Shown here piece by piece: positions 12,343-34,506 of a DNA stretch of 64,000 nt (its first letter is position 1; each line of letters opens with the position of its first letter). The DNA is from Bacteroidia bacterium. Lineage in GTDB: Bacteria > Bacteroidota > Bacteroidia > J057. A program made the position numbers and the translations under genes. Where the stretch lies: assembly GCA_033762375.1 (NCBI GenBank), contig JANRLQ010000055.1, forward strand, positions 1 through 64,000. The letters run 5' to 3'. The notes beneath the pieces were generated by a model, which was not told where the DNA came from, ran no database searches, and saw nothing but the letters and a program-made list of their open reading frames with translations.

Positions 12343-13317
12343 TCAGGGCGCCTTGATCGCCTCAATCACCAGCTCCTCAAACCCCGGCAGGGTCCGGTAG
12401 GCAAAGTCCACTTTCCACCGGGAGATATACTCGCGGCTGACTTCGAGGAAGTATTTGTCCTGGCCGAGGCGGGGACCCAGGTCGGCGTCGTTTTGGCGGT
12501 AGTTGATCACGATGGGGATGTCCCGCTCGATGAGGAAGTACTGCGGATGGGTGAAATACCCCAGCGGGGTCGTATCATACGGGATAAACCCTTCTACCCC
12601 AAACAGATCCAGGGAAAGTTTCATCCAGGGTTCGAGTACACCATAAAGCCAGCGGTCGGCTTTGTTGCCCTGCCGGAGAAACTGCACATCGGCTTTTCCG
12701 AGGTGGAGGTATTCGCTGCACTGGTAGCCGCTCAGGACGACGTGAATGCCTGCGTCGAGGATCACCCGGAAGGACTCGACGTCCAGCTCAAAATTATAGT
12801 CCCATACCGTATGCTGGCGCAGGCCGGGGCGGAAGGGATAACCCGTTGTGCGTCCGGCACAAAAGACGATGGTCCCGATGCGGGCGGCCAGTTCCGGGTG
12901 GTTTTTGAGGACGGTAGCAATATTGGTGGCAGGACCCAGGGCGAGGATGTTGAGTTTCTCCTGGCGCAGGGCAGCGGCCAGGGCGCGGGAGGCATCGGTT
13001 TCTGTCCCGAGGTCATCTCCTTTGGGCGAACCTTTATACACCGGGATCGTCCGCCCCGGCGCGTAGTCGCGGAGCAACTGCTGGGTCACCTGATACCCGT
13101 AATCTATCTCCGTGATCACGCTGATCCCTACGATGTCAAGCTGCGGCTGGGCCAGGGCCATGATGAGGGCGATCCCGTCATCCACCTCGCGGGGGGCGTT
13201 TTCGGGCAGGCCGATCATGATGTCCGTGTCAAGCCAAAGGCGGGTAGGCGAGGTCTGGGCCTGGAGGGGCAGGGTGCTTGCTATCAGGCAGATCAGGTAC
13301 AGGAACAGGCAGCGCAT
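12343..13317 (-). CDS. Secreted nucleoside hydrolase (IUNH family)
   Basis: The signal peptide (MRCLFLYLICLIASTLPLQAQ) is followed by the N-terminal aspartate cluster (LWLDTDIMIGLPENAPREVDDGIALIMAL) typical of inosine-uridine nucleoside hydrolases. Confidence 0.8.
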   Translation of the reverse strand: MRCLFLYLICLIASTLPLQAQTSPTRLWLDTDIMIGLPENAPREVDDGIALIMALAQPQLDIVGISVITEIDYGYQVTQQLLRDYAPGRTIPVYKGSPKGDDLGTETDASRALAAALRQEKLNILALGPATNIATVLKNHPELAARIGTIVFCAGRTTGYPFRPGLRQHTVWDYNFELDVESFRVILDAGIHVVLSGYQCSEYLHLGKADVQFLRQGNKADRWLYGVLEPWMKLSLDLFGVEGFIPYDTTPLGYFTHPQYFLIERDIPIVINYRQNDADLGPRLGQDKYFLEVSREYISRWKVDFAYRTLPGFEELVIEAIKAP

Positions 13318-13539
13318 AAGTGATCAGGATTGGTATCAGGGACTCAAACGCCCGAAGATAGGTCAGAATTGGGAATCAGGAAAAAATTATGTCGGGTCTG
13401 TCGGGCAGCCGTCAAAAAAACAGACGTGAAGGCACACAGGCTTACGGGGGCATCTTGGTACTTATTAGTATGTGCAATGCAAAATGATGTCGCTAGCTGT
13501 AACGAGATTTTCCCATCTTGGGATCAAGTGTAAATCCTC

Positions 13540-13780
13540 TGTCTTTTCCACGCAAAGCCCAAAAACGTCCTGAGTCTTTGCGTACTTTGCGAAAACTTAG
13601 CGCCCTTTGCGTGAACTCTCTTTCGAGAGAATTACCTGTCTTTTTCCACGCAAAGTTCGCAGAGGCCATGCCGCAGAGGGCGCAACGGGAGAAACTATCC
13701 CATACCTTTGCGTGCTTTGCGAAAACTTAGCGCCCTTTGCGTGGACCCTCTTTCGAGAGAGTCCCCTGTCTTTTCCACGC
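13540..13780. repeat. Two ~80-bp near-identical elements (13576-13655 and 13706-13780), each bounded by 9-bp terminal inverted repeats CTTTGCGTG...CACGCAAAG. A partial third tail lies at 13540-13558.
   Basis: Direct reading gives ctttgcgt.ctttgcgaaaacttagcgccctttgcgtg.a.c.ctctttcgagaga....c.tgtcttttccacgcaaag in both copies. The region is intergenic. Confidence 0.55.
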
Positions 13781-13877
13781 CAGGAATGTCAGTTTATTTC
13801 TACCTCGTTCCCTGGGAGGGGTAGATTTGGTATTGGTTTTTTCGTAAAACACGTATTGCGCACTATATCTTATTTCC

Positions 13878-14432
13878 ATGCGCCTCTGGTCCTTACAGTC
13901 AACCGAAGCGGTGGATATCCTGCGCCAAACAGGTATCCTCCGCACCCCCTGGTCCCTCTCTGTTTCAAGCCCTGCGTGGCAACAGGCCTATCAGTGGATG
14001 GCTGACCGCATGGAGTCGGCTGGTATCAACTGCGAAAATCATGCACCCGTCTGGGCCTGGCACTCCTGTGGGAAGTGGAAGCAGGGGCCGACCCGGTTAG
14101 ATGCCTATGCGCTCCTCAGCGACCTGCAAGTGATGGCGGGAGTTCAAACGATTGAGTTTGAATGTCCGGATCATCTGGTCCTGCGGTCCTGGTATCATAT
14201 ATGGTGTGACATCCTGTTTCATTTTCTTGACGGCATGCCTCTTGACGCCCTGGACCCTGCGTGGGTAACACAGTGTTTTAAGGTGCATCCGCGTGGGTTC
14301 AAGTCTCACTACGCGATCCAGGCAGCCCTTCCATATATCCGGTTAGCGTGGGTGCAGGACATCCGCCCCCTCAACCTGACGATGGAGATGCGCACCCACC
14401 ACGAGGGAGTGGATTTTTCAGTTCCGCTCTGA
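13878..14432 (+). CDS. Hypothetical protein
   Basis: A 184-aa ORF, Trp- and His-rich, with plausible coding composition. No motif recognised. Confidence 0.4.
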   Translation: MRLWSLQSTEAVDILRQTGILRTPWSLSVSSPAWQQAYQWMADRMESAGINCENHAPVWAWHSCGKWKQGPTRLDAYALLSDLQVMAGVQTIEFECPDHLVLRSWYHIWCDILFHFLDGMPLDALDPAWVTQCFKVHPRGFKSHYAIQAALPYIRLAWVQDIRPLNLTMEMRTHHEGVDFSVPL

Positions 14433-14445
14433 AGCTGGCGGGGTA

Positions 14446-15525
14446 TCAGGGCATCAGGCACTCCCGCCGGATCAGGTCCACCTCTGCCTGCAGGTACGGG
14501 GTGCCATCCTGCCGGAATATGTCGTGAAACCACAAGGCCGGCTCCGATCCGTCCTGATGGGTGGTATCCGACCAGGCATAGATGGTATTGGTTTTGCCGC
14601 TGACCAGGCCCCAGTTGATGGCGCTGACCTGTTCCCGCTTCAGGATCGGGAGAATGGTTTCGAAGGTACTGCCATTTTTCCGGGCCATATACTCCGAGCA
14701 GAGGAGGGGACGCTCATAGGCCCGGAGGGAGTCTATCGTTGCCTGCATGGAGGCCGGGTCTGTATAGTTGTGAAAGGTAATGATGTCAGACTCCGCAAGC
14801 TGGCGGACATTGAGATCCCGGAGGCTGGCGTTCCAGACGCCAGAGGTGACCGGCTGGGTGGCAGGGGTGCTGCGGGCCCAGGTAAATACTGCCTGGAGGA
14901 GGGGCATCGAGGCATTGCCTTTGCCGGAGTTACCGGGTTCATTATAGAGATCCCAGAGGACGATGCGCTCATCCGTGGCAAAATGGGTCATCACATCCCG
15001 TACGTACCGGGCCAGGATCGGGAAGTACGTAGTATCAGCACTTTCCCGCTGGCCGGGATCCTGGACCCAGCCTGAGTTGTGGATGCCCGGTTTGGGGGCT
15101 GGCTGGAGGCCGGGGGTACTGGTCCCATTCCAGCAGTCATCCATAAACACAAACATCGTGCGGATGCCATATCCATCTGCGAGGGTCAGGTATTGTTCCA
15201 TCCGCGCTTTAAACCCGGTACTATCCTGTTGCCAGGCTTTGTGGTGGAGGTACACCCGCATGAGGTTAAACCCAAGTCCGGCGGCATAACCCAGTTCCCG
15301 GCGGATCGTGGCCGTGTCAAACGTCTCCGCCTGCCACATTTCGAGTTGGTTGATGGCCGTGCTGGGGATAAAATTAGCCCCCCGCATCCAGCCATGCTGG
15401 TTTGCCCAGGTCTGTGCCTGCGCTGGCGTCCAGCGGGTACGGGCTGTGGGAGCAGTTGGCGGGGTAGGGGAGGAGCAGGCTGCGACCAGCAGCAGGACGG
15501 GCAACCAAACAGATACAATACGCAT
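14446..15525 (-). CDS. Lipoprotein glycoside hydrolase, clan GH-A (GH5-like)
   Basis: A lipobox signal (LLLVAACSS) is present. A TIM-barrel glycosidase pattern with the NEP acid/base motif (WDLYNEPGNSG) is seen, plus FNLMRVYLHH and FVFMDDCWNG segments. Confidence 0.65.
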   Translation of the reverse strand: MRIVSVWLPVLLLVAACSSPTPPTAPTARTRWTPAQAQTWANQHGWMRGANFIPSTAINQLEMWQAETFDTATIRRELGYAAGLGFNLMRVYLHHKAWQQDSTGFKARMEQYLTLADGYGIRTMFVFMDDCWNGTSTPGLQPAPKPGIHNSGWVQDPGQRESADTTYFPILARYVRDVMTHFATDERIVLWDLYNEPGNSGKGNASMPLLQAVFTWARSTPATQPVTSGVWNASLRDLNVRQLAESDIITFHNYTDPASMQATIDSLRAYERPLLCSEYMARKNGSTFETILPILKREQVSAINWGLVSGKTNTIYAWSDTTHQDGSEPALWFHDIFRQDGTPYLQAEVDLIRRECLMP

Positions 15526-15695
15526 GCGGGTAGAAGGATAAGGTAAATAGTCCGGGCAGCAAATATAGCCTCAATATACAGGCATTCCCACACGCCGTCA
15601 ACGTTGTTCAAACCATTACAGGGCCTCATAATACACAACGTCAGTCCGGGAGCGAATGACGTTGTGTATTATGAACCGTGCGGTACAGATTGGCG

Positions 15696-18242
15696 TTACC
15701 GTATTTCGATCATGCGTGTTTCTGGGCGTCCGTTGGCAGTGACCCTCAGGATATACCGTCCGGCGGGATAAGCATCTACCGGGATTTCGGCATGATCAGG
15801 GGCCTGTCCCCAGGTGCGGTGCCAGACAGCCTGCCCGTGCAGGGTCATCAGCTCCACCTGTACGGGGCCGGCAAGGGGGGGGAGCCACCGCAGCGTGAGC
15901 TGGTGCCGGGCGGGATTGGGAAATACCGCCAGCGATGACAGGGACAGCGCATCATTTCTGGCAGATGTTTCTGCTGTAAAATCCCAGATCCCCCGCGCAT
16001 ACGTAGCAAACCGTACCGTACGGCTGGCACTCAGGTACTCCACGTCCATATAATGTACCAGCGGGGCATTGCCGGGGATCAGGCTCCAGCCACCGTTTTC
16101 ATAAACAAAAGGGGCAATACTGGATGCGGCAAACAGCTGTGTTTCATCATCGCTGGCGGCCAGGGCTTCTACCAGGCAAGCAGGCATACCTGTATCAAAC
16201 GGGCTGACCGTCAGGCCATGATCAGCGGAGTAATATACCGGCGCATTGGAGTAGCCGCTGCCGCCGACCCATACCTGATTGCGGTCAAGGTGTGACGGAT
16301 AGATCGTCCGGACATACAGATACGGCGACATCAGCCGTTGGGTCCAGGTCAGTCCTGCGTCTGTCGAGCTGAAAAGATACCCGTTTTCCGTGCCCACATA
16401 CCAGTAGTTGCTGTCCACGGGTGAGATCGCTATGGCCGTGATCCGGCCATTTGCCACTGCCTGAAAGTCATACGGAAGTTCTGTGCCGACAGCGTCTGTC
16501 CCTGGTACGGCCTGTACCCGCAGGAGGTGGCTCCCGCTCCCGCCATGAAGGTACCCTGCGGTGTAGCATACATCCGGGCGATGGGTGGACACCCAGATCG
16601 GGGCTTCCCAGTAGTCTATACGACCGTTTTGCAGGTATGGAGACCAGGTGGAGGATACCCCGCTCGTGAGCGGCTGGGTGACATAATTGCAGCCTTCGCC
16701 CCACCACCATACCCAGAAGGTTTCCCCACCGTCGCCGCTGGCCATATTCGTCACATCTCCGCCCCATACGCCTGTAAAGTCCACCGCCTGAGGTTGGGTA
16801 CTGCCGAGGGCCGTGATCGCATACCCATTGTCCTGCGTACCGATGTACATCTCGCCGGGTCTTGCCTGGGTGGTCACCATTTTGTATATCTGGGTACAGT
16901 TCACCCCTGGTACACCCTGCTGCACAAAATGGTCCGTCGCCGCATCACGCTTGTAAATACCGCCATCAGTGCCCATCCAGGTTTCTGCTTTGCTGCTGAG
17001 CGGGTTGATGATACTGAGTGTTTTGGGTACATCGCCATGATACAGCGCATAACTCCCCGTAGGATCCATGTCCGGGAGGGTCCAGGTCGCGCCTCCATCC
17101 GTACTGCGTGACAGGAGGATTGAGCCAAAGTACAGCGTATCAGCCGAGCGGCGCGAGCAGGAGAAGGAGTTGTCCCCAAAGGGACCGTTTTGATACCACT
17201 CCACCAGATCGCCCTGATGCGTCCAGCCCGATGTGAGGCTGCTCCACGCATAAAAACGCCCCAGGCCCTGCGCCCCTGTCCAGGCGCGGAGTTCGACGAC
17301 GCCCTGATGCTCGCGGCCTGTGAGCAGGCAGCCCCAGAGCGTAGGGTCGCCCCCGATCAACCCCCCAAACTGCCGCAAGCCTGACTGTTTATCCACCAGA
17401 AACAAACTGTCCTCCAGCGCAAGGTACAGCGTCGGATGTGTTGCGTTGTCCGGGAGCCACATATCACTTTTGCCGTGGCGGCCCCCATCCCCTGCCGGAA
17501 TCGGGGAGCGGTAGCAGACACTGAAGGCACCCGCCCGGTCCGCCGAGCGATACACGGTGTAATAATCTCTGCCAAGCGCCGGATCATATTCCTGCACAAA
17601 TACATAGGCCGTATCTCCCTGAAACAACATACGCCGGATACCCATCAGCGGGTATGTATCCAGCCCGGTCGGTTGTACCCAGGCGGCACCCAGGTCATCG
17701 CTGTAAAAAATCCCCCAGGCATTAAGGGTTTTTTGCCAACCAGCGACAACAATACGGGGTTGTGCCCCCGGCAGTACCTTCATCTTGGCACCCGTGCCCA
17801 ACCCGAGCGGGTGGTGATCATTCAGGGAAGACCAGGTCTGACAACTCAGGTCACCAGATCGGAAGACCAGCCCGTAATCACTCAGCGCATACACATGGCC
17901 CTGGATATAGTCTATATCAATGTCCGTAATACGTCCCGGTACGTTGGCCGGGCCGCGTTCTGCCCAGGTACCCGTGATTTCGGGTATATGCATATCCCGG
18001 CCCTGGATAAGCGATTGCAGGCTACGGGCTTCTATCGCACGCCAGTCATCTCCCGGAGCAGTGCGGTGTATGAGGCTGTCCCAGGCCACAGGCCGACGTT
18101 TGCCATCCTCGGGCACAAGCGGCGTATAGTCAGCCCGGCGTATAGCCGGCGGGGTAAAGGCCTGTTTGTCAATAGACTGGCTCCAATACCAGATACCACC
18201 TGACAGCAGAATCCCTCCCAAGAGCAGGGGCGATAGACGCAT
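15696..18242 (-). CDS. Secreted BNR/Asp-box repeat protein (sortilin/GH74-like beta-propellers) with a T9SS C-terminal sorting domain
   Basis: Multiple S-x-D-x-G-x-T-W repeats are present (SDDLGAAWVQ, STDGGATWT, STDAGLTWTQ, SADHGLTVS). There is an N-terminal signal/TM. The C-terminal ~80 aa (LAVFPNPARHQLTLRW...GRYILRVTANGRPETRMIEIR) matches the Por_Secre_tail pattern. Confidence 0.75.
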   Translation of the reverse strand: MRLSPLLLGGILLSGGIWYWSQSIDKQAFTPPAIRRADYTPLVPEDGKRRPVAWDSLIHRTAPGDDWRAIEARSLQSLIQGRDMHIPEITGTWAERGPANVPGRITDIDIDYIQGHVYALSDYGLVFRSGDLSCQTWSSLNDHHPLGLGTGAKMKVLPGAQPRIVVAGWQKTLNAWGIFYSDDLGAAWVQPTGLDTYPLMGIRRMLFQGDTAYVFVQEYDPALGRDYYTVYRSADRAGAFSVCYRSPIPAGDGGRHGKSDMWLPDNATHPTLYLALEDSLFLVDKQSGLRQFGGLIGGDPTLWGCLLTGREHQGVVELRAWTGAQGLGRFYAWSSLTSGWTHQGDLVEWYQNGPFGDNSFSCSRRSADTLYFGSILLSRSTDGGATWTLPDMDPTGSYALYHGDVPKTLSIINPLSSKAETWMGTDGGIYKRDAATDHFVQQGVPGVNCTQIYKMVTTQARPGEMYIGTQDNGYAITALGSTQPQAVDFTGVWGGDVTNMASGDGGETFWVWWWGEGCNYVTQPLTSGVSSTWSPYLQNGRIDYWEAPIWVSTHRPDVCYTAGYLHGGSGSHLLRVQAVPGTDAVGTELPYDFQAVANGRITAIAISPVDSNYWYVGTENGYLFSSTDAGLTWTQRLMSPYLYVRTIYPSHLDRNQVWVGGSGYSNAPVYYSADHGLTVSPFDTGMPACLVEALAASDDETQLFAASSIAPFVYENGGWSLIPGNAPLVHYMDVEYLSASRTVRFATYARGIWDFTAETSARNDALSLSSLAVFPNPARHQLTLRWLPPLAGPVQVELMTLHGQAVWHRTWGQAPDHAEIPVDAYPAGRYILRVTANGRPETRMIEIR

Positions 18243-19147
18243 ATGAAAATCTTTATCTACTCAAGTAACACAAAAACCAGCTATCTGCAAATACAGACAT
18301 GAATATCACAGGGTTGAGGTGGCAGGGAGAAGTGGGCGGTCGTGGGGTGAGGCAGATCTTATTCCAAACTGAGCAAACCGCGGCGTACTCCTGCATGGAA
18401 GGCGGCCGGCAACACCATTTATTCTCCCTATTACTGGTGTACCTGATCGAAGCCACAGGACCTGTCCTGAGCCCTTCGAAGGGCCCCCTCAGCAAACCTG
18501 TTCAGGTACTTTTCACCGCAGGCGTACATATCAACAAAAAAGTTGTATATATTTATGGCGCATCTGGCACCAAACTCCACTAGCCTTGTCCTGAGCGCAG
18601 TCGAAGGGTCGAATACGCTGCCACCAACACCGCAGTGAAAACGACTGTGACTTCAGCCATCCAGACTCCTGTGAATGATTCTTATTTTACGATCAGGGGT
18701 GTGGGAAAGAGTGAAATACCTCGGTTTCTTTAGACCACCTGGTAGAGTTTGTTAATGTGAGCCAAGCGGCTAATCGGTATCGTTCAGCGGGTTGAGGTAT
18801 GTCAGTATCCTGGCGGGCCCGGTGGTGTACCGGTTTCTGCCCCGCCCCATCCTGCAAAAAAACGAGTCATCCCGGGCCGGATTGAGACAGAGGTACGGTA
18901 TGGTATCGGCTTACCCTGATGGGTTTCTCGTGCCGGGTTGACAGACCAGCTGTCTTAGGAACACGCTCAGCATACATGCCAGATATTGCGAAGGGATTTT
19001 GTGCGAAGACAAGGAAGGCAACCCGAGTCAGCGCGGACTCAATCACTCCAGAAGGGGGATTAAGGGGCCCCCTTCTGGAGTCCTCTGACGCATCATCTGA
19101 ACAAAAGCCCGAGTCAGCGCGGAATGTATGTTGAGCGTTTTACTTAG

Positions 19148-19219
19148 TGCCCCCGGCAGGAATCGAACCTGCATCTAGCGTTTAGGAAACGCCTGTTCTA
19201 TCCATTAAACTACGGCGGC
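19148..19219 (-). tRNA. tRNA-Arg (anticodon CCT)
   Basis: The reverse complement folds as a cloverleaf. The acceptor is GCCGCCG/CGGGGGC with one G:G mismatch at 4:69. The D-arm is GTTT-AATGGATA-GAAC. The anticodon arm is GGCGT-TTCCTAA-ACGCT with anticodon CCT. The T-arm is GCAGG-TTCGATT-CCTGC and the discriminator is A. CCA is not encoded. Confidence 0.7.
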
Positions 19220-24608: not shown

Positions 24609-24756
24609 TGCCTTATTCCGGTTCCAACTTTGTGGATCGCAGGACGTCTTTTAGCTATCAGGTCCTTTCCGGCAGATCTTGCCCGGATTTCTGGCTATGA
24701 TTTCAAAAAAAAGTTGTTGATTACTGCTGAATCCACTCAACCGGCTTTTCTGGTGT

Positions 24757-25413
24757 ATGAATCCTTTTTTCCAGGCTGTTTTTGCCCCCTATAATTTGCC
24801 CTATACCCTGCTGTTATTGCTGTCGCTCTGCTACTGGCTCCTTGTAGTGGCAGGTGCGATAGACGGTCATGGCGGAGACCTGGATGCGGATGCAGACCTG
24901 GATCTGGATGCCGAGGCAGGTGTTGAGGCAGACCTGGAAGCTTCCGGTGCGCCCGGATGGGCTGCCAACATAGCAGCCTTTTTTAACATCGGCTCCGTAC
25001 CGCTGATGGTATTTATCACCCTGCTCACCCTCTCCATGTGGGCCCTGGCGATGATCGCCAACCTGTATCTGATACCCGACCCTGCGGGTTGGGCGGCCCT
25101 GGTGTTGTTTCCGGTGGTACTGGTCGTGTCCCTGTTTGTGGCGCGGCTGCTCTCCACGCCCTTCAAGGGCATGTATCGCCAGATGAATGAAGGGGGCATC
25201 TCCAAGCGCCAACTGGCCGGCAAAACCTGTGTGATCACCGTAGCCGTTGCGCCCGGACGCATCGGGCAGGCCGAGCTGACCTTTGAGGGGCATCATTTCC
25301 TCCTGAACGTCCGCACGGCCGATGATGAATCACTCGCGCGTGATACCGCTGCCCTGCTCGTAGAGTATGAGCCAGATACAGATTGTTTTGTGGTGACCCA
25401 GTTTGACGTTTGA
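24757..25413 (+). CDS. NfeD/YqiJ-like membrane protein (DUF1449-like): acidic N-terminal region, two TM helices, and a C-terminal OB-fold
   Basis: The N-terminal region has an acidic low-complexity stretch (DGHGGDLDADADLDLDAEAGVEADLEAS). Hydrophobic segments follow. The C-terminal beta-rich segment (GKTCVITVAVAPGRIGQAELTFEGHHFLLNV) resembles an NfeD OB-fold. The gene sits immediately upstream of the flotillin gene, as in yqiJ-yqiK. Confidence 0.6.
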   Translation: MNPFFQAVFAPYNLPYTLLLLLSLCYWLLVVAGAIDGHGGDLDADADLDLDAEAGVEADLEASGAPGWAANIAAFFNIGSVPLMVFITLLTLSMWALAMIANLYLIPDPAGWAALVLFPVVLVVSLFVARLLSTPFKGMYRQMNEGGISKRQLAGKTCVITVAVAPGRIGQAELTFEGHHFLLNVRTADDESLARDTAALLVEYEPDTDCFVVTQFDV

Positions 25414-25471
25414 TACTTCCGGCCCTGCTTAAGCTGTAAAAACCTTTGTATCCCCCTATATTTTTTCTCCC

Positions 25472-27637
25472 ATGATTCTCCAGATTTTATTGACAGTCGT
25501 GATCATCCTGGCCTCAGTGGTGATCGGCTATTTCCTGCTCATCGCCCTGTTTTACCGCAAAGTAACCCAGGGTAAAGCCATCGTGCGTACAGGCATGGGG
25601 GATACCCGTGTCAGCCTTAAGGGTATCTACGTCATTCCGGTCCTGCACAATGCGGAGGTGATGGATATCTCGCTCAAGCAGGTACAGCTCAGCCGTGAGG
25701 GCAAGGATGGGCTGATCTGTAAGGACAACCTCCGGGCAGACATCAAAGTCGCCTTTTTTGTGCGGGTGAGCCCCAATGAAGATGACATAAAAAAGGTCGC
25801 ACAGACCATCGGATGTGCCCGTGCTTCTGACCCTGAGTTGCTGCGCAGCCTGTTTGAGGCCAAGTTTTCAGAAGCGCTCAAAACAGTCGGCAAGCGGTTT
25901 GACTTCGTCGAACTCTACAGCACCCGTGAAGCCCTCAAGACAGAGCTGCTGCAGGTGATCGGCAAGGACCTCAACGGGTATATGCTGGACGATGCCGCGA
26001 TTGACTACCTGGAGCAGACTCCCTTGCAATTTCTTGACGAAAACAACATCCTCGACTCAGAGGGTATCAAAAAAATACGGGACCTCACCGCACGCCAGAT
26101 TACGGAGGCTAACAAAATCCAGCGGGACCGGGAGAAGGAAATCAAACGCCAGGATGTAGATGCACAGGAGGCCATCCTGCAACTGGAACGTCAGCTGGCA
26201 GAAAAACAGGAAGTACAGAAACGCGAGCTGGCTACAATCCGGGCACGGGAAGAGGCTGAAACACGACGTATCCAGCAGGAAGAGCTGACCAAGTCCGAGC
26301 GGGCCCGTATCGCACGCGAGCGGGAAATCAACATCGAGGAAGAAAACAAACTCCGGGACGTGATGGTCGCCCAAAAAGGAAAAGAACGCTCCGAAGCCAT
26401 TGAAAATGAGCGGGTACAGCGGGACCGGGAGCTGGAAGCCACAGAGCGGGAGCGCATTGTGTCCATTGCCCAGATAGCCAAAGAAAAAGCCCTGGAGGAA
26501 GAAAAGAAAAATATCCAGGACGTGATCCGGGACCGTGTGATGGTAGAAAGGGCCGTGGTGGAGGAAAAAGAAAAAATCAAAGACACGGAAGCCGTTGCGT
26601 CAGCTGAGCGGGTGAAAAAAGTAGCCCTGCTGGAGGCTGAACAAAAAGCCCAGGAGCAATTGGTCCAGACGATCAAAGCAGCAGAGGCGGCCAAAGCGGC
26701 AGCTGAGCTGGATGCACAGCGCCGTATCATCGAGGCCAATGCTGAGCGTGAAGCAGTGGACAAGGAGGCGGCTTCCCGCAAGATCATGGCAGACGCTATC
26801 GCCGAAGAAAATGCTGCCCTCGGCCTGTCTGAGGCACGTGTGATCGAGGCCAAGGCTGCCGCACATGAAAAAGAAGGTATGGTCGAGGTCTCGATCATGG
26901 AGCACAAAGCGGCGGCTGAGGCACGTGCCCTCCAGCTCAAAGGAGAGGCCAACGCCGGAGCCGAAAAAGCCCAGGGCCTCTCCATCGCCGCTGTCACCAT
27001 CGAAAAAGGCCTGGCTGATGCCAAAGTCCTCGAAGCCAAGGCCCTTGCCACCCAGCAGATGGGCCAGGCTGAAGCCCAGGTCATTGAGCTCAAGGCTGTT
27101 GCAGAAGCCAAAGGGATGGAGTCCAAAGCCGATGCCATGAAAAAAATGGACGGAATCGGACGCGACCACGAGGAGTTCAAACTCCGCCTCGAAAAAGAAA
27201 AAGCCGTGGACCTGGCCCGTATCAGCACCACTTCCGAGCTGGCAGCCGCCCAGGCAGGCGTATTGGCCGAGGCCCTGCGCGTAGCCAAGATCGAGATTAT
27301 CGGTGGCGAGCAGGCCTTTTTTGACCGGCTCTCCGGGGCTGTCGTTAATGCCCGGTACGTGGATCAGCTAATGGACAAGAGCCATCACCTCCAGGACTTC
27401 AAACAAGCCCTGCTCAGCTCAGATACCAGCGGCAATACCCTGATGAGCAGTATCAGCCAGTTTCTGAGCCAGTTTCCGGTGAGTCCTGAAGACTTAAAAA
27501 ACCTGAGCCTCACAGCCCTGATCGCCCGGCTGATGGCCCAGACCACGGACCCCGGCAAACTGGACGCACTGCGGCATATGCAGGGGCTGGCGACGGCCCT
27601 GGGCATCGGGGCGGAGGAGAAACCTGCTAACAAATAA
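25472..27637 (+). CDS. Flotillin family (SPFH/band 7) protein with a greatly extended Ala/Glu-rich coiled-coil
   Basis: An N-terminal TM is followed by an SPFH domain (KAIVRTGMGDTRVSLKGIYVIPVLHNAEVMDISLKQVQL). A ~450-aa coiled-coil with EA/KA repeats follows. At 721 aa it is longer than YqiK/FloT-like proteins. Confidence 0.85.
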   Translation: MILQILLTVVIILASVVIGYFLLIALFYRKVTQGKAIVRTGMGDTRVSLKGIYVIPVLHNAEVMDISLKQVQLSREGKDGLICKDNLRADIKVAFFVRVSPNEDDIKKVAQTIGCARASDPELLRSLFEAKFSEALKTVGKRFDFVELYSTREALKTELLQVIGKDLNGYMLDDAAIDYLEQTPLQFLDENNILDSEGIKKIRDLTARQITEANKIQRDREKEIKRQDVDAQEAILQLERQLAEKQEVQKRELATIRAREEAETRRIQQEELTKSERARIAREREINIEEENKLRDVMVAQKGKERSEAIENERVQRDRELEATERERIVSIAQIAKEKALEEEKKNIQDVIRDRVMVERAVVEEKEKIKDTEAVASAERVKKVALLEAEQKAQEQLVQTIKAAEAAKAAAELDAQRRIIEANAEREAVDKEAASRKIMADAIAEENAALGLSEARVIEAKAAAHEKEGMVEVSIMEHKAAAEARALQLKGEANAGAEKAQGLSIAAVTIEKGLADAKVLEAKALATQQMGQAEAQVIELKAVAEAKGMESKADAMKKMDGIGRDHEEFKLRLEKEKAVDLARISTTSELAAAQAGVLAEALRVAKIEIIGGEQAFFDRLSGAVVNARYVDQLMDKSHHLQDFKQALLSSDTSGNTLMSSISQFLSQFPVSPEDLKNLSLTALIARLMAQTTDPGKLDALRHMQGLATALGIGAEEKPANK

Positions 27638-27660
27638 CAAGATACCTCCCGCCCGATCTC

Positions 27661-28329
27661 ATGCCCAGAAGCACTGCCTGGTTCATACTGTTGCTGATGA
27701 CGGCCTGTGGCCGTCATCAGACCCTGTTTGACCGGAGTGCGCCGGAAGACCTGCCGCCCCAGCTCCGGGAACTGGCGATTGCTGCTGCTGCCTATGGAGA
27801 CCCATCGTATGTCCGGACCTATACCTTCACGGATGGTAACCAGCCGGTGCGGACTGAGGTTACCTGGCTCCGGCTCGATCCGGGCCAGCGTATCCGGCAG
27901 CGGGAGGTGTATCATGTATTTGACTCCCGCGCCCTGGACACCCGCGAGTACTACGTGACAGAGATGCGCCTGGACTTGCAAGATACCGTTTCCCGCCAGC
28001 TGTTTCTGGACTTCAGGATCGTGGCTGACCGGGATACGGCCCGTGTGGTGATCGCAGACCGGCAAGAGGTGCGGGTGAACCGGATTGATACCCTGGTTGT
28101 AGGAGGCGAGTCAGAGGTAGTGGCACGCCTGCTCGGATATGCACACGAGGGAGATGACCGCCCGGGCCACCACAAATATTGGTCCCCACGGTACGGCACA
28201 CTTCTCGTCTGGTATGGAAACGGAACCCGGCTCACCCTGACAGATGCCCCGCCTGCCCAGCGAGATCAGGCCCTGGCCCTCGTTGCGGCCGTAAGCGCCA
28301 CCCTTGATACAACCCTGACCGACCCTTGA
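27661..28329 (+). CDS. Lipoprotein, hypothetical
   Basis: A lipobox is present (FILLLMTACG). There are 23 bp downstream of the flotillin gene and 43 bp upstream of the giant ATPase gene. Confidence 0.5.
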   Translation: MPRSTAWFILLLMTACGRHQTLFDRSAPEDLPPQLRELAIAAAAYGDPSYVRTYTFTDGNQPVRTEVTWLRLDPGQRIRQREVYHVFDSRALDTREYYVTEMRLDLQDTVSRQLFLDFRIVADRDTARVVIADRQEVRVNRIDTLVVGGESEVVARLLGYAHEGDDRPGHHKYWSPRYGTLLVWYGNGTRLTLTDAPPAQRDQALALVAAVSATLDTTLTDP

Positions 28330-28372
28330 TGGTGACTTGAGCTGATGCACCGCTATTTTACCGCTTTTTTTC

Positions 28373-31300
28373 ATGGCTGACTCCACCCCCCAGACCATTT
28401 CTGCCCAGCCTACGCTTGATACAGGGACTTACGAGCTCCTGCGCCGGCGTATGCTTGATCAGGCCACAGAGCTAAGCACCCGGCTCGACCGGCTGAATGC
28501 GGCCCGGCAGGCAATATTTGGTGCCTCCGAAAGCCGGCTCCTGGCGACCCGCCATATCACCACTGAAAACAACTGTATCCCGCGGGATATGGCAGCCTTT
28601 GGGCAGCACTTTTTATTCGGCTACAATGTCCATATCGGGTTGCGGGCCGGGATGCGGCTGGAGGATGTGTTCAGCTTGTTCCGGTTTGAGCCTCAGGATC
28701 ACTCGTTCCATGAGCTACCCCTGGAAATGCTGCGCCAGGGGCGGTTTGAAGAAAACTTCCGCAACCTCTTCACCTATTATAAAGACACGACCTTTGCCCG
28801 GTTTGCCCTGATCGGTCCCAGCCTGTTTATGGTTTTCCAGACTGGCAAACAAGTTTCCGACATCAAGACATTCAAATGGACCATCCGGGAGGATACACTT
28901 GTGTACGAGGGCGACCGGTTTGACCACGAGTACCGCCTGCCGGAGCAGTTTGCCTTTACCTGGAAACGCACCGGCCGGGAGATGCAGCGCCGGGGGATTT
29001 ATCCACATATTTCGATTGAAGACCGGTTATTTGTAGAATGTATTGGCGGAGACCTCACCATCAAAGTGGAGGACAATACCGATACAGGATTGGGTATCTA
29101 TGCCGAACCCGTCGAGGTAGCCGACCAGACCCTGGACGATGCCGAGATTTCCTATGCCCTGGCAGGAAACCTGATTGTCCTCAAAATCAGGCCTTACCAG
29201 GAAAAACAAACCCGCTACATAGTCGTCAGCGACAAGCTGAAGCACGCCTTGCGGGTAGATGCCCTGGAGCAGGCCTGCGTCCTGCTGCCGGAGTCTCAGG
29301 GTATTATTTTTCCCAATGGGTACTACCTCCAGACGGGTGCCTACAAACTGTTTGACAAGCTGGCGGCAGGTCTTCAGTACGAAAAACGCATTCAGTCTGC
29401 GGCAGGAGAGGATTTTCTGTATGTGTTTTCCCAGCCCCAAACCGGCGAGTACGTATTGATGCCCTACAACCTTGTCGCCCAGCAGGTGACGACGCCGGTG
29501 ATATGTCACGGGTATTCGTTATTTGATCAGGGAGAGTTGTGTTTTTTCAGGGCCGAATCAGAACCGGGGCGGCACCACGTGATCCAGGTATGGCATACGC
29601 CTTATGGTCGGCGGCCTGTGATCGCCAGCGGTGCAGAGGACAGTTATATCTATAAGGTCGGGAGCAAAGACCTGGTCCGGGGCATGGCCGAGTGCCGTGC
29701 CCTTCTGACCCTGGCCCAGCAGGAGACCCCTTATGATGCCTTGTATGCGGACCTGGTACACCAGGCCAGCAGCATGCTCGATGCGTACTATTGGCTGAGT
29801 CATCCGGAGGCAGGCGAACTGTCAGTACCGCTGGCAGGTCTGCGGGATGCTGCTGCTGCTACCATTGAGGCATTTGAAAGTACCCGCCGCCTGCAGCGCC
29901 ACGCACAGCAGGCCCTGGCAGACTTTACGCATCGCGTGCGGTCACTGCTCGACAAAATCCGCCGTCGGCGGGCGGAGTCCCTGGAAACTTTTGTGGGGTA
30001 TCTGACAGAGCTGCGGACTCTGCGGGGCGAGGCCATCTCCCTGCGCGAACTGCGGTATGCAGATACAGCTGCTTTTGCAGCGCTGGAGGCCCAGTTGCTG
30101 GAAGGACAGACCGATACCGGGATCAAGTGTGCGACTTTTCTCGCAGACCCTGCTTCACTCACTCCCTATGCGCGGGAGATTGAAGCCCTCAAGCAGCAGA
30201 CGGAATCTTTTGCGACTGTAGCTGCCTCCAAATCTGTGCAGGAGGCTGCCGATAAGGTCGGTAGCAGCCTGTCGCTGCTCACAGAGACCGTCGGTAACCT
30301 GCCGATCACCGATACCACCGAATCCACCCGGATCGTAGAGCAGATCGCGGCCCTGTATGCAGCCCTCAATGGCGTACAGGCCCGTATCCGGCAGCGCCGT
30401 ACCACCCTGCAGACCACGGAGTCGTCCGCTGCTTTTTTTGCTCAGATGCAGCTTCTCGCCCAGTCTGTCACCCATGCCCTGGATACCAGCCAGACCCCGG
30501 AGGCCTGCGAAGCAAGCCTTGGGCTGCTGACGGTGCAGTTGGAGGAGCTGGAAGGAAAGTTTGGTGAAACCGACACCTTCCTGCCCGAGCTCACCCGCCA
30601 GCGGGAGGAGATACACCAGGCATTTGAATCCCGGCGGTTGCAATTGCTGGAGGCACGGAATAAGCGGGTCACGACCCTCATGCAGGCAGCCGAGCGCCTG
30701 CTGGACTCCCTGCAATCCCGGGCCCAGCGCGAAGACGATCCGGCTGCATTGCGGGCTTTTTTTGCCTCCGACCTGCTCGCTGGCAAGGTCCGCACCATTA
30801 TGACCCAGTTGGAGGCCCTTCAGGATGCCGGCAAGGCCGATGACCTCCGAAACCGACTCCGGGCCCTCGAAGATACCTCCCTGCGCGCCCTCCGTGACCG
30901 GAAAGACCTTGCCTCCGAGACCGCTGGGGGCATCCGGCTGGGGCGGCATACTTTTTCAGTCGTAGGACAGCCTCCGGAGTTGTCCCTGGTACCCCGTGAC
31001 GGGGAGATGTACCTGCACCTGACGGGCACCCGCTTTTTTGAGAAAGTGACCGATCCGGCATTTCTGGAGACCCGGGCCACCTGGGAGCAGGTTTTTGTCA
31101 GTGAAAATACGCAAGTATATCGGGCGGAGTATCTTGCCTGGCAGGTATTACACCACGGCAACCTGCCCCCGGTACTTCCTGCTGCTGAGATACAGGCAGC
31201 CGTCAGGACATTTGCGGCGAGCCGTTATGAAGAGGGGTATGTCAAAGGGGTACACGACCAGGATGCAGCCCTGATCTATACGGCCCTGCGGGAGGTGCAT

Positions 31301-33232
31301 GAGCTGGCCGGTGCCCTGCGTTACCTGGCCGGTGCACGCGCCCTGGCATTGCTCTGGTGGGAGCGTTTTTTGCCGGAGGAATCCCGAAAAAGGTGGCTGA
31401 TCAGGCTGGAAGCTGCTGCCCTGGCCCGTGAGACCTTAGGTGTACATACCCAGGCGGCCGCCCTGATTGCCGCCCTTACCCAACACCTGGAAACCTTCGC
31501 CACCGACACCGGTATCGGCGCCGCTGCCCATGCTGGAGAAGCTGCTGCGTATTTGCTGGCAGTACGGGGGCGGGATTGGGTCGTGAGCAAGGGGGCCGCT
31601 ACCGGACGGGAGCAGTTTGAAGCATATCTGAAGCAGCATAAAGCCGCCACACACTGGCAGACGGCATTTAAGGCCCTGGCGGATCACCCCGCTGAGCAGG
31701 CTGATATGGTCAGGACCTGGGTACAGGGATTTGTGCAGACACCGGGTGCTCCCGCCCTGCTGCCCGGCGAAGACGCCGAAATCATGGCCATGCTGATGTG
31801 TAATGCTCCTGTCTGGACGGTCCCCCAGATCTCACTGACACGGGAACTGACCGGCTTGCAGGGCGAACATCCCGTCCTCAACCAGGGACATTATACCTTT
31901 TCTTACCCGGTATTTACCCATCGCCTGCGCACCTATGAGGCGGAAACCGTACCCGTATTCCGGGCGTATCAGGCCCAAAAAACAAAGCTCCTCGCAGCGG
32001 CAGGAGAGCGGATCAAGCCTCACCAGCTCCGGCCACAGCCGATGGCTTCCTTTGTGCGGAATCAGCTCATTGACAAGGTATATCTGCCCCTGATCGGCGA
32101 CAACCTCGCCAAACAAATCGGCACCAGTGATGCCAGCCGCGCTGACCGGATGGGGATGCTCCTGGTGATCTCTCCGCCGGGATATGGCAAAACCACCCTG
32201 ATCGAGTATGTCGCGCACCGGCTGGGACTCATTTTCCTCAAGGTGAATGGCCCCGCGCTCGGGCGGGAGGTGACCTCCCTGGATCCGGCTGCCGCCCCCA
32301 ATGCTGCCGCCCGCGAAGAACTGGAGCGTCTCAACCTGGCCTGGGAGATCGGCGACAACGTAATGTTGTATCTGGATGATATTCAGCACTGTAACCCGGA
32401 GTTTTTACAAAAGTTCATCTCCCTCTGTGATGCCCAGCGCAAAATCGAAGGGGTCTACCGGGGGGTATCCCGCACGTATGACCTGCGGGGAAGGCGTTTT
32501 GCAGTGGTCATGGCAGGCAACCCCTATACCGAGAGCGGCGAAGCCTTCAGTATTCCGGACATGCTCGCCAACCGGGCCGATACCTATAACCTGGGGGACA
32601 TTCTCGGCAATACCCGGGACCTGTTCGGTCTGAGTTACCTCGAAAACGCCATTACTTCCAACCCTGTTTTGCAGCCCCTCGGCAGCAGCCCGCCGGAAGA
32701 CTTGCAGACCCTCTTCCGGATCGCCGCTACCGGCAACCGGGAAGGTGTGCAGTGGGTGTCCAATATCGGTGAGTCAGAGGTCAATGAAGCCGTAACCGTT
32801 CTGCAAAAACTGGCCCGTATCCGGGATGTGGTGATGCTGGTAAACCAGGCGTATATCCAGTCGGCAGCCCAGGCAGAGGCCTACCGGACCGAACCCCGTT
32901 TTTTGATGCAGGGCTCTTACCGGAACATGAACAAAATGGCCGAAAAAGTCCTGGCTGCCATGAATGATACGGAGTTAGATACCCTTATTCTCAGTCACTA
33001 TACGTCGGAGTCACAGACCCTGACCCGAGATGCAGAGGCCAATCTGCTCAAGTGTAAGATGATCTGCGGGTACGCTACACCCGAGGATGAAGCCCGTTGG
33101 CAGCAGATTCTGGAGACCTTTCGCCGCAACCATCTTCTGTCTGCCGACCGGATGGGACAGATTGTGCAGCAGCTCGGACTTCTTGCCGAAAACCTCGCCG
33201 GTATCCGCACCCGGTTTGAGGCGGAGGCGTAA
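28373..33232 (+). CDS. Giant (1619 aa) cytoplasmic multidomain protein with a C-terminal MoxR/AAA_5-like P-loop ATPase domain
   Basis: A single uninterrupted ORF with no signal peptide. Walker A (ISPPGYGKTTLIEY, ~32176-32205), Walker B (VMLYLDDIQHCN) and sensor-1 (VVMAGNPYTE) motifs are followed by an arginine-containing tail (DMLANRADTYNL). A central ~350-aa Ala/Leu/Glu/Arg-rich helical region is present. Confidence 0.8.
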   Translation: MADSTPQTISAQPTLDTGTYELLRRRMLDQATELSTRLDRLNAARQAIFGASESRLLATRHITTENNCIPRDMAAFGQHFLFGYNVHIGLRAGMRLEDVFSLFRFEPQDHSFHELPLEMLRQGRFEENFRNLFTYYKDTTFARFALIGPSLFMVFQTGKQVSDIKTFKWTIREDTLVYEGDRFDHEYRLPEQFAFTWKRTGREMQRRGIYPHISIEDRLFVECIGGDLTIKVEDNTDTGLGIYAEPVEVADQTLDDAEISYALAGNLIVLKIRPYQEKQTRYIVVSDKLKHALRVDALEQACVLLPESQGIIFPNGYYLQTGAYKLFDKLAAGLQYEKRIQSAAGEDFLYVFSQPQTGEYVLMPYNLVAQQVTTPVICHGYSLFDQGELCFFRAESEPGRHHVIQVWHTPYGRRPVIASGAEDSYIYKVGSKDLVRGMAECRALLTLAQQETPYDALYADLVHQASSMLDAYYWLSHPEAGELSVPLAGLRDAAAATIEAFESTRRLQRHAQQALADFTHRVRSLLDKIRRRRAESLETFVGYLTELRTLRGEAISLRELRYADTAAFAALEAQLLEGQTDTGIKCATFLADPASLTPYAREIEALKQQTESFATVAASKSVQEAADKVGSSLSLLTETVGNLPITDTTESTRIVEQIAALYAALNGVQARIRQRRTTLQTTESSAAFFAQMQLLAQSVTHALDTSQTPEACEASLGLLTVQLEELEGKFGETDTFLPELTRQREEIHQAFESRRLQLLEARNKRVTTLMQAAERLLDSLQSRAQREDDPAALRAFFASDLLAGKVRTIMTQLEALQDAGKADDLRNRLRALEDTSLRALRDRKDLASETAGGIRLGRHTFSVVGQPPELSLVPRDGEMYLHLTGTRFFEKVTDPAFLETRATWEQVFVSENTQVYRAEYLAWQVLHHGNLPPVLPAAEIQAAVRTFAASRYEEGYVKGVHDQDAALIYTALREVHELAGALRYLAGARALALLWWERFLPEESRKRWLIRLEAAALARETLGVHTQAAALIAALTQHLETFATDTGIGAAAHAGEAAAYLLAVRGRDWVVSKGAATGREQFEAYLKQHKAATHWQTAFKALADHPAEQADMVRTWVQGFVQTPGAPALLPGEDAEIMAMLMCNAPVWTVPQISLTRELTGLQGEHPVLNQGHYTFSYPVFTHRLRTYEAETVPVFRAYQAQKTKLLAAAGERIKPHQLRPQPMASFVRNQLIDKVYLPLIGDNLAKQIGTSDASRADRMGMLLVISPPGYGKTTLIEYVAHRLGLIFLKVNGPALGREVTSLDPAAAPNAAAREELERLNLAWEIGDNVMLYLDDIQHCNPEFLQKFISLCDAQRKIEGVYRGVSRTYDLRGRRFAVVMAGNPYTESGEAFSIPDMLANRADTYNLGDILGNTRDLFGLSYLENAITSNPVLQPLGSSPPEDLQTLFRIAATGNREGVQWVSNIGESEVNEAVTVLQKLARIRDVVMLVNQAYIQSAAQAEAYRTEPRFLMQGSYRNMNKMAEKVLAAMNDTELDTLILSHYTSESQTLTRDAEANLLKCKMICGYATPEDEARWQQILETFRRNHLLSADRMGQIVQQLGLLAENLAGIRTRFEAEA

Positions 33233-33354
33233 TACAGCCCGAAACAGCTTAGGAATCTGCACATGACACATTAATCCCTGTTGCTTAATCCGGAATGTGG
33301 CGTATATTAGGGGAGAATCAACCCGCTCATCAACCGCTAACGATCCGTTTGCTG

Positions 33355-34506
33355 ATGAAGTTTTTTGTAATCCGTAAGCCTGCCTTCGCTCGTTCTTATT
33401 GTCTGGGGCTGCTCATGCTGCTGCTGCCTGCTGCCCGGTCTCAGCCTGCCTTTTCTTTTTTTTGCGAACTGGACAGTACGGCATTTCTCCAACTGACCCG
33501 GGACACCAGCGTGATCCGGGACTTACAGGCCATCCGGGCTGCTGTCAGGGTAGGGCTGCTGGACCTGAGCCAGACCCGCGCAGAGGGCGTTCGTAACCTC
33601 AATGCGGCAGGTATCCCGGTAGTGGCCTGGTTACTTCTGCCCGCAGACTCAGGATATTGGTTTAATATGTACAACGCTGAGCAGGCCCAGCGGCGGTACG
33701 ACGCATTCAAAACCTGGTCAGCCGCCGACTCACTCCGCTGGATCGGGGTAGGCCTGGACCTGGAACCCCGCATGGCGGATATGCAGGAAGCCGTGCACGA
33801 TCCCTGGCTAGGTGCCCGGAAGGCATGGGGCAGGCTCTATGAGCAAGACCAACTCACCCGCGCACGTGAGACCTACACAGAGCTGATCCGGCGCATGCGG
33901 GCTGATGGGTTCCGGACGGAGAGTTACATTATCCCGCCTGTGCTGGATGATCGCCTGACGGGCACGACCTCATTTCAGCTCCTGATGGAGCTGGTAGATA
34001 TCGAAACAGACCTGGAGATTCCGATGTGTTATTCCAGTGTGCCCGGTTCCTCACCAGCACAGATCCTCTCCTACGGTGCAGGAGCAGCAGCAGTAGCTGT
34101 AGGCAGTACCGGCGGAGGCATCAAAGTAGACGGAATGGATGCCTTGCCCGCCATGAGTTGGGAGATGCTGGAGCGAGACCTGCTGCTGGCCCAGCAGGTG
34201 AGCCGTGAGATACATATTTTCAGCCTGGAAGGTTGTGTGGCACAGGGTTTTTTGCCCCGTATCCGCTCGTTTTATTACTTACAGCCCGTGGACATCAACA
34301 GCCGGGAGCTGGTGTCCGTGCAGCAGTTCCGGAGTCGCCTCCAACTCTTACTCAGGTTCCTGGCATATCCTACCTGGACGGTGGCCGGCATATGCTTAGC
34401 CCTGATCCTGGTCATTGCCTTCCTTGTATGGGGGGTGATAGGCGTGCGGCGTTTTTTCCGGCTTCGGCGCAAGGGCCGTGCCGCCGAGGTATCTTCAGCT
34501 GGCTGA
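33355..34506 (+). CDS. Hypothetical secreted protein with a C-terminal TM anchor
   Basis: A signal peptide (MKFFVIRKPAFARSYCLGLLMLLLPAARSQ) and a C-terminal hydrophobic helix (VAGICLALILVIAFLVWGVIGV) followed by a basic tail. Confidence 0.5.
   Translation: MKFFVIRKPAFARSYCLGLLMLLLPAARSQPAFSFFCELDSTAFLQLTRDTSVIRDLQAIRAAVRVGLLDLSQTRAEGVRNLNAAGIPVVAWLLLPADSGYWFNMYNAEQAQRRYDAFKTWSAADSLRWIGVGLDLEPRMADMQEAVHDPWLGARKAWGRLYEQDQLTRARETYTELIRRMRADGFRTESYIIPPVLDDRLTGTTSFQLLMELVDIETDLEIPMCYSSVPGSSPAQILSYGAGAAAVAVGSTGGGIKVDGMDALPAMSWEMLERDLLLAQQVSREIHIFSLEGCVAQGFLPRIRSFYYLQPVDINSRELVSVQQFRSRLQLLLRFLAYPTWTVAGICLALILVIAFLVWGVIGVRRFFRLRRKGRAAEVSSAG

Follow-up and report, generated by a model that had tools for sequence, protein, structure and literature searches.

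The closest described relatives of the gene group reported here are two pairs of an SPFH2 flotillin and a short NfeD protein, yqiJ-yqiK of Escherichia coli and yuaF-floT of Bacillus subtilis (Hinderhofer et al. 2009, PMC2636767), and an operon predicted by Ravi, Anantharaman, Aravind, Gennaro et al. (mSystems 2024, PMC11237479). The latter was described in a comparative genomics study of PspA and consists of a YqiJ-YuaF gene, a gene for a protein with Band-7, coiled-coil and flotillin regions, and a gene for a protein combining a beta-propeller, a coiled coil and an AAA-ATPase, with and without PspA. In the full version a CesT/Tir - PspA dyad stands ahead of the three core genes, and a PLD gene is found in some Proteobacteria. 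Abbreviated operons (band-7/flotillin, YqiJ/YuaF, sometimes the ATPase) were found to be widespread, and a PspA from another locus may act together with them; Table S3 of that study lists the Bacteroidetes species Dokdonia donghaensis (ANH61663.1) as an example. The description was purely computational and the operon was interpreted in terms of 'membrane dynamics'. Here we analysed a stretch of 64,000 nucleotides from a Bacteroidia bacterium (lineage J057; assembly GCA_033762375.1, contig JANRLQ010000055.1, positions 1 to 64,000), called the window in the following, in which four neighbouring genes encode a YqiJ-like membrane protein, a long flotillin, a lipoprotein and a giant ATPase.

The three core proteins of the operon of Ravi et al. 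are all encoded in the window, with identical gene order and domain architecture, and loci from Gammaproteobacteria and Hymenobacter analysed here reproduce its PspA, CesT/Tir and PLD extensions. The window differs in having neither the CesT/Tir-PspA dyad nor PLD and in carrying an extra, clade-restricted lipoprotein gene. Because the dyad is lacking, the window represents the 'abbreviated' form of this operon. An earlier note on this DNA, made from the sequence alone, had presented the coupling of flotillin and NfeD to a giant AAA+ protein as uncharacterised and new. Since the window and the published operon are the same system, this coupling is already in the literature, as a prediction (PMC11237479). 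The operon type is therefore known in silico, and this locus is one more instance of it as well as a narrow, lipoprotein-bearing variant. The paper of Ravi et al. contains no AAA+ clade assignment, no mention of the Asp-Asp Walker B motif and no quantified linkage, all of which are supplied here; new beyond the published work is also the evidence against the name 'DNA repair' ATPase, while the gain for this window itself is modest.

In the literature searched we found no experimental study of the three-gene system, and the identifiers 'DUF3686' and 'PF12458', which belong to the ATPase, occurred in no paper. A search for flotillin together with MoxR returned nothing relevant, and the ATPase is not mentioned in a survey of SPFH proteins of Pseudomonas aeruginosa PA14 or in a 2009 paper on SPFH evolution. 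The family is thus without an assigned function of the kind that the earlier note had named as a challenge to its idea, the sole name in use, 'DNA repair ATPase', being unsupported. The first two genes of the module are homologous to yqiJ-yqiK and yuaF-floT and stand in the same order. E. coli K-12 yqiJK differs in that no giant ATPase gene follows downstream and yqiK is followed by sibD/ibsD.

The order YqiJ-like gene, flotillin gene, giant ATPase gene is kept across many phyla

Linkage of the three genes was quantified in genome loci with one genome per species, covering Bacteroidota, Riflebacteria, Myxococcota, Vulcanimicrobiota and many Gammaproteobacteria (including Pseudomonas, Pseudoalteromonas, Colwellia, Methylobacter and Hahella). 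Genes for a YqiJ-like protein and a long flotillin were located directly upstream of the giant gene and on the same strand in 67 of the 69 genome loci with at least 3 kb of upstream DNA. The same pair was present in 7 of 9 further contigs (Pontibacter, Hymenobacter, Catalinimonas, Desulfonema, Planctomycetaceae and two Bacteroidota metagenome-assembled genomes, MAGs). The combined linkage of the giant ATPase with both genes amounts to 74 of 78 loci from many phyla, and the three-gene order is conserved among them. This co-occurrence is far above chance, as the earlier note had suspected, and is the opposite of the situation that it thought damaging to its idea, namely giant homologues encoded mostly away from flotillin and NfeD genes. 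Pairwise distances among 70 taxa were correlated between the giant protein and the flotillin (r=0.96) and between the giant protein and the YqiJ-like protein (r=0.95; Mantel p=0.001), which fits a long co-inheritance as a unit.

Within the window, four open reading frames (ORFs) on the + strand were confirmed (Table 1). They are separated by 58, 23 and 43 base pairs (bp), so that coordinates, strand and spacing of the four co-directional genes were reproduced as first described. No terminator-like hairpin was found on the + strand in the three intergenic gaps, which is compatible with an operon but no proof of one. The proposal of a four-gene module holds in so far as a conserved module exists; its conserved core consists of three genes, and the lipoprotein is not part of it, as a profile search of 5.8 billion proteins recovered only five members of the lipoprotein family.

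Neighbouring genes of the related loci were grouped by clustering, and eight recurrent clusters were scanned with Pfam. Gammaproteobacteria were found to have an extended operon in the order DUF2170 (YjfI-type), PspA/IM30, YqiJ-like protein, flotillin, giant ATPase, rhomboid, and PLD-like hydrolase or zinc-ribbon protein. A PspA gene together with a CesT/Tir-like gene was present in the operon in about 31-34 genome loci, almost all of them gammaproteobacterial. Hymenobacter encodes CesT_Tir_1 and PspA, in this order, upstream of the three core genes, and in Catalinimonas PspA is encoded in the operon without a called CesT/Tir-like gene.

Features and domain architecture of the encoded proteins

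Table 1. Position of the module, its upstream region and the protein domains within the window (aa, amino acids; AF2, AlphaFold2)
Feature	Coordinates	Strand	Basis
Intergenic region upstream of the YqiJ-like gene, 148 bp	24609..24756	+	read from sequence
YqiJ/YuaF-type (short NfeD-like) membrane protein, 218 aa	24757..25413	+	family profile match to YqiJ; position 5' of flotillin gene
YqiK/FloT-type flotillin, 721 aa	25472..27637	+	BLASTP and profile match to YqiK
Flotillin, SPFH/Band_7 domain, aa 30-171	25559..25984	+	Pfam PF01145
Flotillin, E/A/K-rich helical (coiled-coil) region, aa ~190-560	26039..27151	+	read from translation; aligns with YqiK coiled coil to aa ~465
Flotillin, C-terminal region, aa 561-721	27152..27637	+	phmmer, hhalign, conservation profile
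Clade-specific lipoprotein, 222 aa, accessory gene	27661..28329	+	lipobox ...LLLMTAC, Cys16
Giant cytosolic protein, 1619 aa (NCBI family name 'DNA repair ATPase')	28373..33232	+	homologues near full length
Giant protein, N-terminal helix and divergent beta-propeller-like domain (DUF3686), aa 33-473	28469..29791	+	PF12458; AF2 model; Foldseek
Giant protein, helical-bundle/coiled-coil region, aa 474-830, including DUF7902, aa 595-677	29792..30862	+	Pfam PF25472; AF2 model
Giant protein, middle region, aa 831-1230: small beta unit (~aa 853-891), then helical domain	30863..32062	+	AF2 model of C-terminal half
Giant protein, single AAA+ module of MoxR/AAA_5-dynein-midasin type, aa 1231-1453	32063..32731	+	motifs; structure model
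Giant protein, C-terminal helical domain, aa 1454-1619, conserved aa ~1480-1560	32732..33229	+	AF2 model of C-terminal half; conservation profile

By reading of its translation, the giant protein has no visible signal peptide or transmembrane segment. Two AF2 models span its whole length, one for aa 1-830 (pLDDT 86.5) and one for aa 791-1619 (pLDDT 85.6). AAA_5 had first been taken for the only recognisable domain of this protein, and here the picture changed, as it also carries DUF3686 (PF12458, E=5.7e-173) and DUF7902. In the N-terminal model a helix (aa 17-49) is followed by about 28 strands within aa 55-408, and Foldseek related this domain to the beta-propellers of Sec12 (E=6e-6), the clathrin terminal domain, IFT-A, CyRPA and prolyl oligopeptidase with high probability but low TM-scores of 0.15-0.35. 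We therefore call the modelled domain divergent propeller-like. It is followed by modelled helical bundles of the spectrin/BAG type (aa ~420-830). In a conservation profile across phyla, aa 1001-1160 were the least conserved part of the protein and the AAA+ module its most conserved segment.

A C-terminal MoxR-like AAA+ ATPase had been recognised from the translation alone and was recovered here by domain and fold searches. Pfam AAA/AAA_5 matched aa 1263-1386 weakly, above the cut-off (AAA_5 marginally, with 23.6 bits vs 22). The module contains Walker A (GYGKT, aa 1270-1274), Walker B (YLDDIQH, aa 1333-1339), AGNP (aa 1381-1384) and LANRAD (aa 1398-1403) motifs. Walker A, in its longer form PPGYGKT, is canonical and invariant, and Walker B reads hhhhDD (Asp-Asp) instead of hhhhDE, invariably in all 64 aligned homologues. 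A fold search with the model placed the module nearest to structures of the MoxR clade, with CbbQ and NorQ as closest structural neighbours; it supersedes a sequence search of the PDB with the AAA+ region, whose matches to Cdc48, VAT and RuvB were limited to about 40-70 residues around Walker A. Motifs and models together show a protein made up of a predicted propeller-like domain, helical bundles and one MoxR/dynein-type AAA+ module.

At least 4650 homologues of the giant protein were found at E<=1e-5. The best 120 of these were 46-54% identical over near full length and came from Bacteroidota, Desulfobacterota and Planctomycetota, and homologues of about 40% identity were found in Gammaproteobacteria, Myxococcota and Riflebacteria. 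Proteobacterial homologues run 100-400 aa further at the C-terminus. In total the family ranges over Bacteroidota, Proteobacteria including Pseudomonas, Myxococcota, Planctomycetota and Desulfobacterota. DUF3686 comprises about 700 clusters at 50% identity and is N-terminal in nearly all full-length members listed (1600-2036 aa). It is essentially specific to the giant ATPase family.

The second gene of the module encodes a flotillin whose first 27 residues, MILQILLTVVIILASVVIGYFLLIALF, are hydrophobic and, judged from the translation, a putative membrane anchor. Pfam gave no match to the full-length protein at E<=0.1, presumably because the E/A-rich coiled coil suppresses the score; the N-terminal 219 aa scanned alone matched PF01145 at aa 30-171 (E=3e-12, 47.4 bits vs a cut-off of 23.6). 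BLASTP aligned the protein to E. coli YqiK over 443 aa with 30% identity (5e-43), and its family profile aligned to YqiK by hhalign with 99.9% probability over aa 11-465. A sequence search of the PDB with the full flotillin gave no meaningful match. The flotillin of the window is about 170 aa longer than YqiK, and its aa 545-721 (~177 aa) show no relationship to the C-terminus of YqiK (hhalign probability 0.3%). The C-terminal region (aa 561-721) had no Pfam match. Used alone as a phmmer query, it matched the flotillins of linked loci with E-values of 1e-7 to 1e-32, and the C-terminus is conserved among ATPase-linked flotillins to about aa 640. Flotillin homologues across all linked loci had E-values of 1e-121 to 1e-202. 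The coiled coil, previously described as unusually long, is typical rather than peculiar to this copy, because the median length of ATPase-linked flotillins is 679 aa; the 721 aa found here are only moderately above the 553 aa of YqiK.

Some further observations concern the flotillin gene. The AT skew was 0.276 in the composition window 26001-28000, which spans the coiled-coil region. Three long antisense ORFs at 26191-27288 (-; 365 aa), 26600-27169 (-; 189 aa) and 27385-28065 (-; 226 aa) together lie across parts of the flotillin gene and extend into the beginning of the lipoprotein gene. The translation of the 365-aa ORF is of low complexity and rich in Ser, Ala and Arg, and the same artefact was seen at several related loci (cluster c5). 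All three are interpreted as shadow ORFs of the DNA that codes for the E/A/K-rich coiled coil, and not as genes. In two Bacteroidota contigs, L083 (2240-2809) and L084 (2188-2754), an extra gene of 188-189 aa with only a Band_7 domain lies between the genes for the YqiJ-like protein and the full-length flotillin. Its product in L083 is 56% identical to the SPFH domain of the flotillin in the window, and the gene looks like a duplicated stand-alone SPFH domain.

The first gene is a divergent member of its family. According to the family alignment its product consists of a hydrophobic N-terminal transmembrane segment (TM1), an acidic D/E-rich loop, TM2-TM3 and a C-terminal beta-rich domain. Aligned to E. 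coli YqiJ, the family reached a hhalign probability of 96.4% (E=1e-9) over 137 columns that cover TM2-TM3 and the beta domain. The Pfam model YqiJ_N matched the protein below threshold (14.9 bits vs a cut-off of 23, E=0.031) and was found at E<1e-3 in one of 37 family members, none of which matched the NfeD model of Pfam. Searches of the PDB with the single sequence and with a profile gave no meaningful match. On these alignments the protein is best classified as a divergent YqiJ/YuaF-type short NfeD protein.

Possible function of the giant ATPase and alternative explanations

Bacterial flotillins and PspA/Vipp1 are now regarded as related or analogous to the ESCRT-III and membrane-organising machinery of eukaryotes. 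Since the giant ATPase is almost always encoded in the flotillin-YqiJ operon, it is an obvious candidate for a controller of flotillin and PspA assembly dynamics, and this candidate role could be tested in tractable hosts such as Pseudomonas. With a probability of roughly 0.55 we read the locus as an 'abbreviated' copy of a widespread membrane-maintenance operon that serves the ATP-driven remodelling of flotillin, and perhaps PspA, assemblies. By analogy to the solved SPFH-NfeD and HflK/C assemblies, the flotillin and the YqiJ-like protein would form an SPFH cage or microdomain at the inner membrane, on its cytoplasmic side. The soluble giant ATPase, probably a ring oligomer with long arms ending in propellers, would dock on this flotillin assembly, and the family-specific C-terminus of the flotillin may be the docking site. 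Binding and hydrolysis of ATP would assemble, open or dismantle the cage, or load or extract clients, in envelope stress or membrane repair. A PspA encoded elsewhere in this genome may cooperate with the ATPase, and the lipoprotein would reside on the periplasmic side, probably as a lineage-specific accessory, input or anchoring factor.

A role in membrane remodelling or envelope stress had been among the possibilities considered in the earlier note, and it agrees with the PspA, rhomboid and PLD neighbours in the extended operons. For a link between an SPFH protein and PspA, B. subtilis YdjI offers an experimental precedent (PMC8581546). Precedents for an SPFH assembly with an ATPase are FtsH-HflK/C and QmcA-YbbJ, in which a cage formed by an SPFH protein (with NfeD or a paralogous partner) encloses or controls an AAA+ machine or a protease. 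In contrast to FtsH, a classical AAA protease that is anchored in the membrane within the cage, the giant ATPase appears soluble from its translation, is without a protease domain, has five times the size and comes from a different clade.

Several points weigh against the remodelling of flotillin assemblies by this ATPase. Operon status in this organism is deduced from gene spacing only, and every step of the mechanism derives from genes, homology and models. No PspA, CesT/Tir, PLD or rhomboid gene was detected in the window by tblastn, for which the PspA and DUF2170/CesT queries came from Pseudomonas and Hymenobacter. The giant gene has no adjoining flotillin gene in four loci (L010, L030, L082 and L089), two of which are Bacteroidia MAGs close to the protein of the window. 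The correlation of distances between the three proteins is expected for any vertically co-inherited genes. MoxR-type ATPases normally use a VWA partner, and none was found conserved near the module by jackhmmer with two VWA seeds against the ORFs of L001-L080, a search of limited sensitivity; VWA was also not among the eight recurrent neighbour clusters scanned with Pfam. Finally, the giant ATPase may be a slow switch rather than a motor because all homologues have Asp-Asp in Walker B.

The remodelling reading could be taken one step further, with the giant ATPase opening or disassembling flotillin cages and, where co-encoded, PspA/ESCRT-III polymers, as an independently evolved functional counterpart of Vps4. 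We consider this tentative and rather doubtful; if true, bacteria would possess an ATP-driven remodeller of membrane scaffolds from the MoxR/dynein clade. Alternatively, the giant ATPase might primarily remodel PspA polymers, as a functional analogue of Vps4 from another AAA+ clade, for which flotillin and YqiJ-like protein would provide no more than a platform at the membrane. This is unlikely in our view. It would account for the PspA and CesT/Tir-like genes in about 31-34 genome loci and in Hymenobacter, for PspA in the Catalinimonas operon and for the Dokdonia operon in Table S3 of PMC11237479, and it would fill a gap stated in reviews, according to which bacteria are without a Vps4-like ATPase for PspA (PMC7619361). 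The likeness to the Vps4-ESCRT-III systems of archaea and eukaryotes is one of gene context only, in that an AAA+ ATPase is encoded together with PspA, a member of the ESCRT-III superfamily, in part of the family. The giant protein itself lacks the marks of a Vps4-type ATPase, a classical-clade AAA fold with an N-terminal MIT domain.

A further alternative is a maturation chaperone of the MoxR type, comparable to CbbQ, NorQ and RavA, that activates a membrane enzyme complex, or inserts its cofactor, within a flotillin microdomain that corrals the complex. This would be in line with CbbQ and NorQ as closest structural neighbours of the AAA+ module and with the stabilisation and organisation of client membrane proteins that has been reported for flotillins (PMC11222466). 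It is made quite improbable by the neighbourhoods, which contain no VWA/MIDAS partner and no conserved gene for a client enzyme, and by the protein itself. The giant ATPase has 1619 aa and carries propeller and helical arms ahead of its C-terminal AAA+ module, an arrangement that sets it apart from the MoxR family as well as from dynein/midasin AAA_5 proteins; its 1200-aa N-terminal part has no counterpart in MoxR proteins, and Walker B is DD and not DE.

Anti-phage defence or abortive infection organised on a flotillin scaffold, another possibility raised in the earlier note, now seems very improbable. Conflict systems commonly include large NTPases that have propeller domains, and the extended operons encode membrane-active enzymes (PLD, rhomboid). 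Conflict-type genes also lie a few kb from the module in two loci: L084 encodes bAvd/23S_rRNA_IVP and a CHAT-nSTAND1-WD40 protein (11121-16899), and the Hymenobacter contig L087 an RVT_1 reverse transcriptase (12998-14812) and an Imm50 protein (18778-19191). These neighbours are not conserved among loci. PADLOC (PADLOC-DB v2) gave no significant match to the four proteins of the window, the only hit being JetC on a coiled-coil stretch (E=0.018), which we regard as an artefact, and an NCBIfam scan of the four proteins and a neighbouring 403-aa ORF yielded nothing useful. Because PADLOC found no match and the module is flanked by housekeeping genes, a defence role is unlikely. In addition, none of the core genes encodes an effector of the nuclease, protease or toxin kind, identity between orthologues of different phyla is 40-55%, and flanking gene clusters recur among Pseudomonas species, which we read as vertical inheritance rather than a mobile island.

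That the protein is a DNA-repair ATPase adjoining flotillin by coincidence or for unrelated reasons, as the NCBI/Pfam names 'DNA repair ATPase' and 'ATPase involved in DNA repair', weak RuvB_N matches at the P-loop and a weak JetC/MukB-like coiled-coil match might suggest, is hardly credible, given that the RuvB matches cover about 45 residues around Walker A with 21 bits vs a cut-off of 282, that domain and fold searches found no DNA-binding or nuclease domain and no SMC or ABC-type split ATPase head, that membrane proteins are encoded next to it in 74 of 78 loci, and that its family identifiers are absent from the papers searched; the propagated name is probably wrong.

Accessory genes and surroundings of the module

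The third gene of the window encodes a lipoprotein whose signal peptide carries a lipobox with Cys16, invariant across three aligned positional homologues. These homologues, 25-37% identical, occupy the corresponding place between flotillin and giant gene in L083, L084 and L085, the closest module-bearing Bacteroidota contigs, and share the motif LLGYAH.GD...HHKYWSP.LGTLL. No counterpart was found in the 80 loci L001-L080, a single-sequence search returned only the protein itself, and there was no match in Pfam, NCBIfam or PADLOC. We regard it as a genuine accessory gene of narrow distribution, outside the conserved core.

Other genes were observed at the same position elsewhere. In several Pseudomonas-type loci, including L012, L060, L074 and L078, the flotillin-giant gap of 370-530 bp contains a small ORF (cluster c63, about 100-115 aa) with sub-threshold Pfam matches only (e.g. 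EF-hand_7, E=0.009). In Catalinimonas (L090) the slot is occupied by a 122-aa DUF559 gene and in Hymenobacter (L087) by one of 197 aa. Lineage-specific inserts, such as the lipoprotein gene here, seem to be tolerated at this position between flotillin and ATPase. In L090, genes for TelA, an unannotated 283-aa ORF, OmpA and VWA follow just downstream of the module on the opposite strand (13251-17415, -); this group is another cluster of the envelope-stress type near the module.

Downstream of the giant gene in the window, a 403-aa ORF (33295-34506, +) with hydrophobic N- and C-terminal segments starts after 62 bp. It was rejected as a fifth member of the module because it had no homologue in any related locus and no match in Pfam, NCBIfam or PADLOC; it may be a genome-specific fifth gene or unrelated. 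Further out, the module is embedded in ordinary chromosomal genes, with GT2, an M23 peptidase and a rhodanese/UPF0176 protein encoded upstream and DnaB, a thioredoxin-like protein and RNase R downstream. The intergenic region upstream of the YqiJ-like gene may contain the promoter. A sigma-70 scan, whose range does not include promoters of the Bacteroidota type, found no site in this region and 2 sites vs 4.4 expected. An Rfam scan revealed no leader or riboswitch near the module; the sole Rfam family at gathering score within the window was a tRNA at 19148-19219 (-).

Other genes of the window include a caspase-like (Peptidase_C14) protein at 62-1459 (+) and a VWA-domain protein at 2709-4022 (+), about 21-25 kb from the module. 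The VWA gene does not adjoin the module, and its proximity is probably coincidence. The module is also unrelated to two other stand-alone P-loop proteins of the window, an AAA-ATPase_like protein with a PDDEXK_9 nuclease domain at 47459-49165 (-; 568 aa) and an ATPase_2/AAA_14 protein at 9071-10513 (-; 480 aa).

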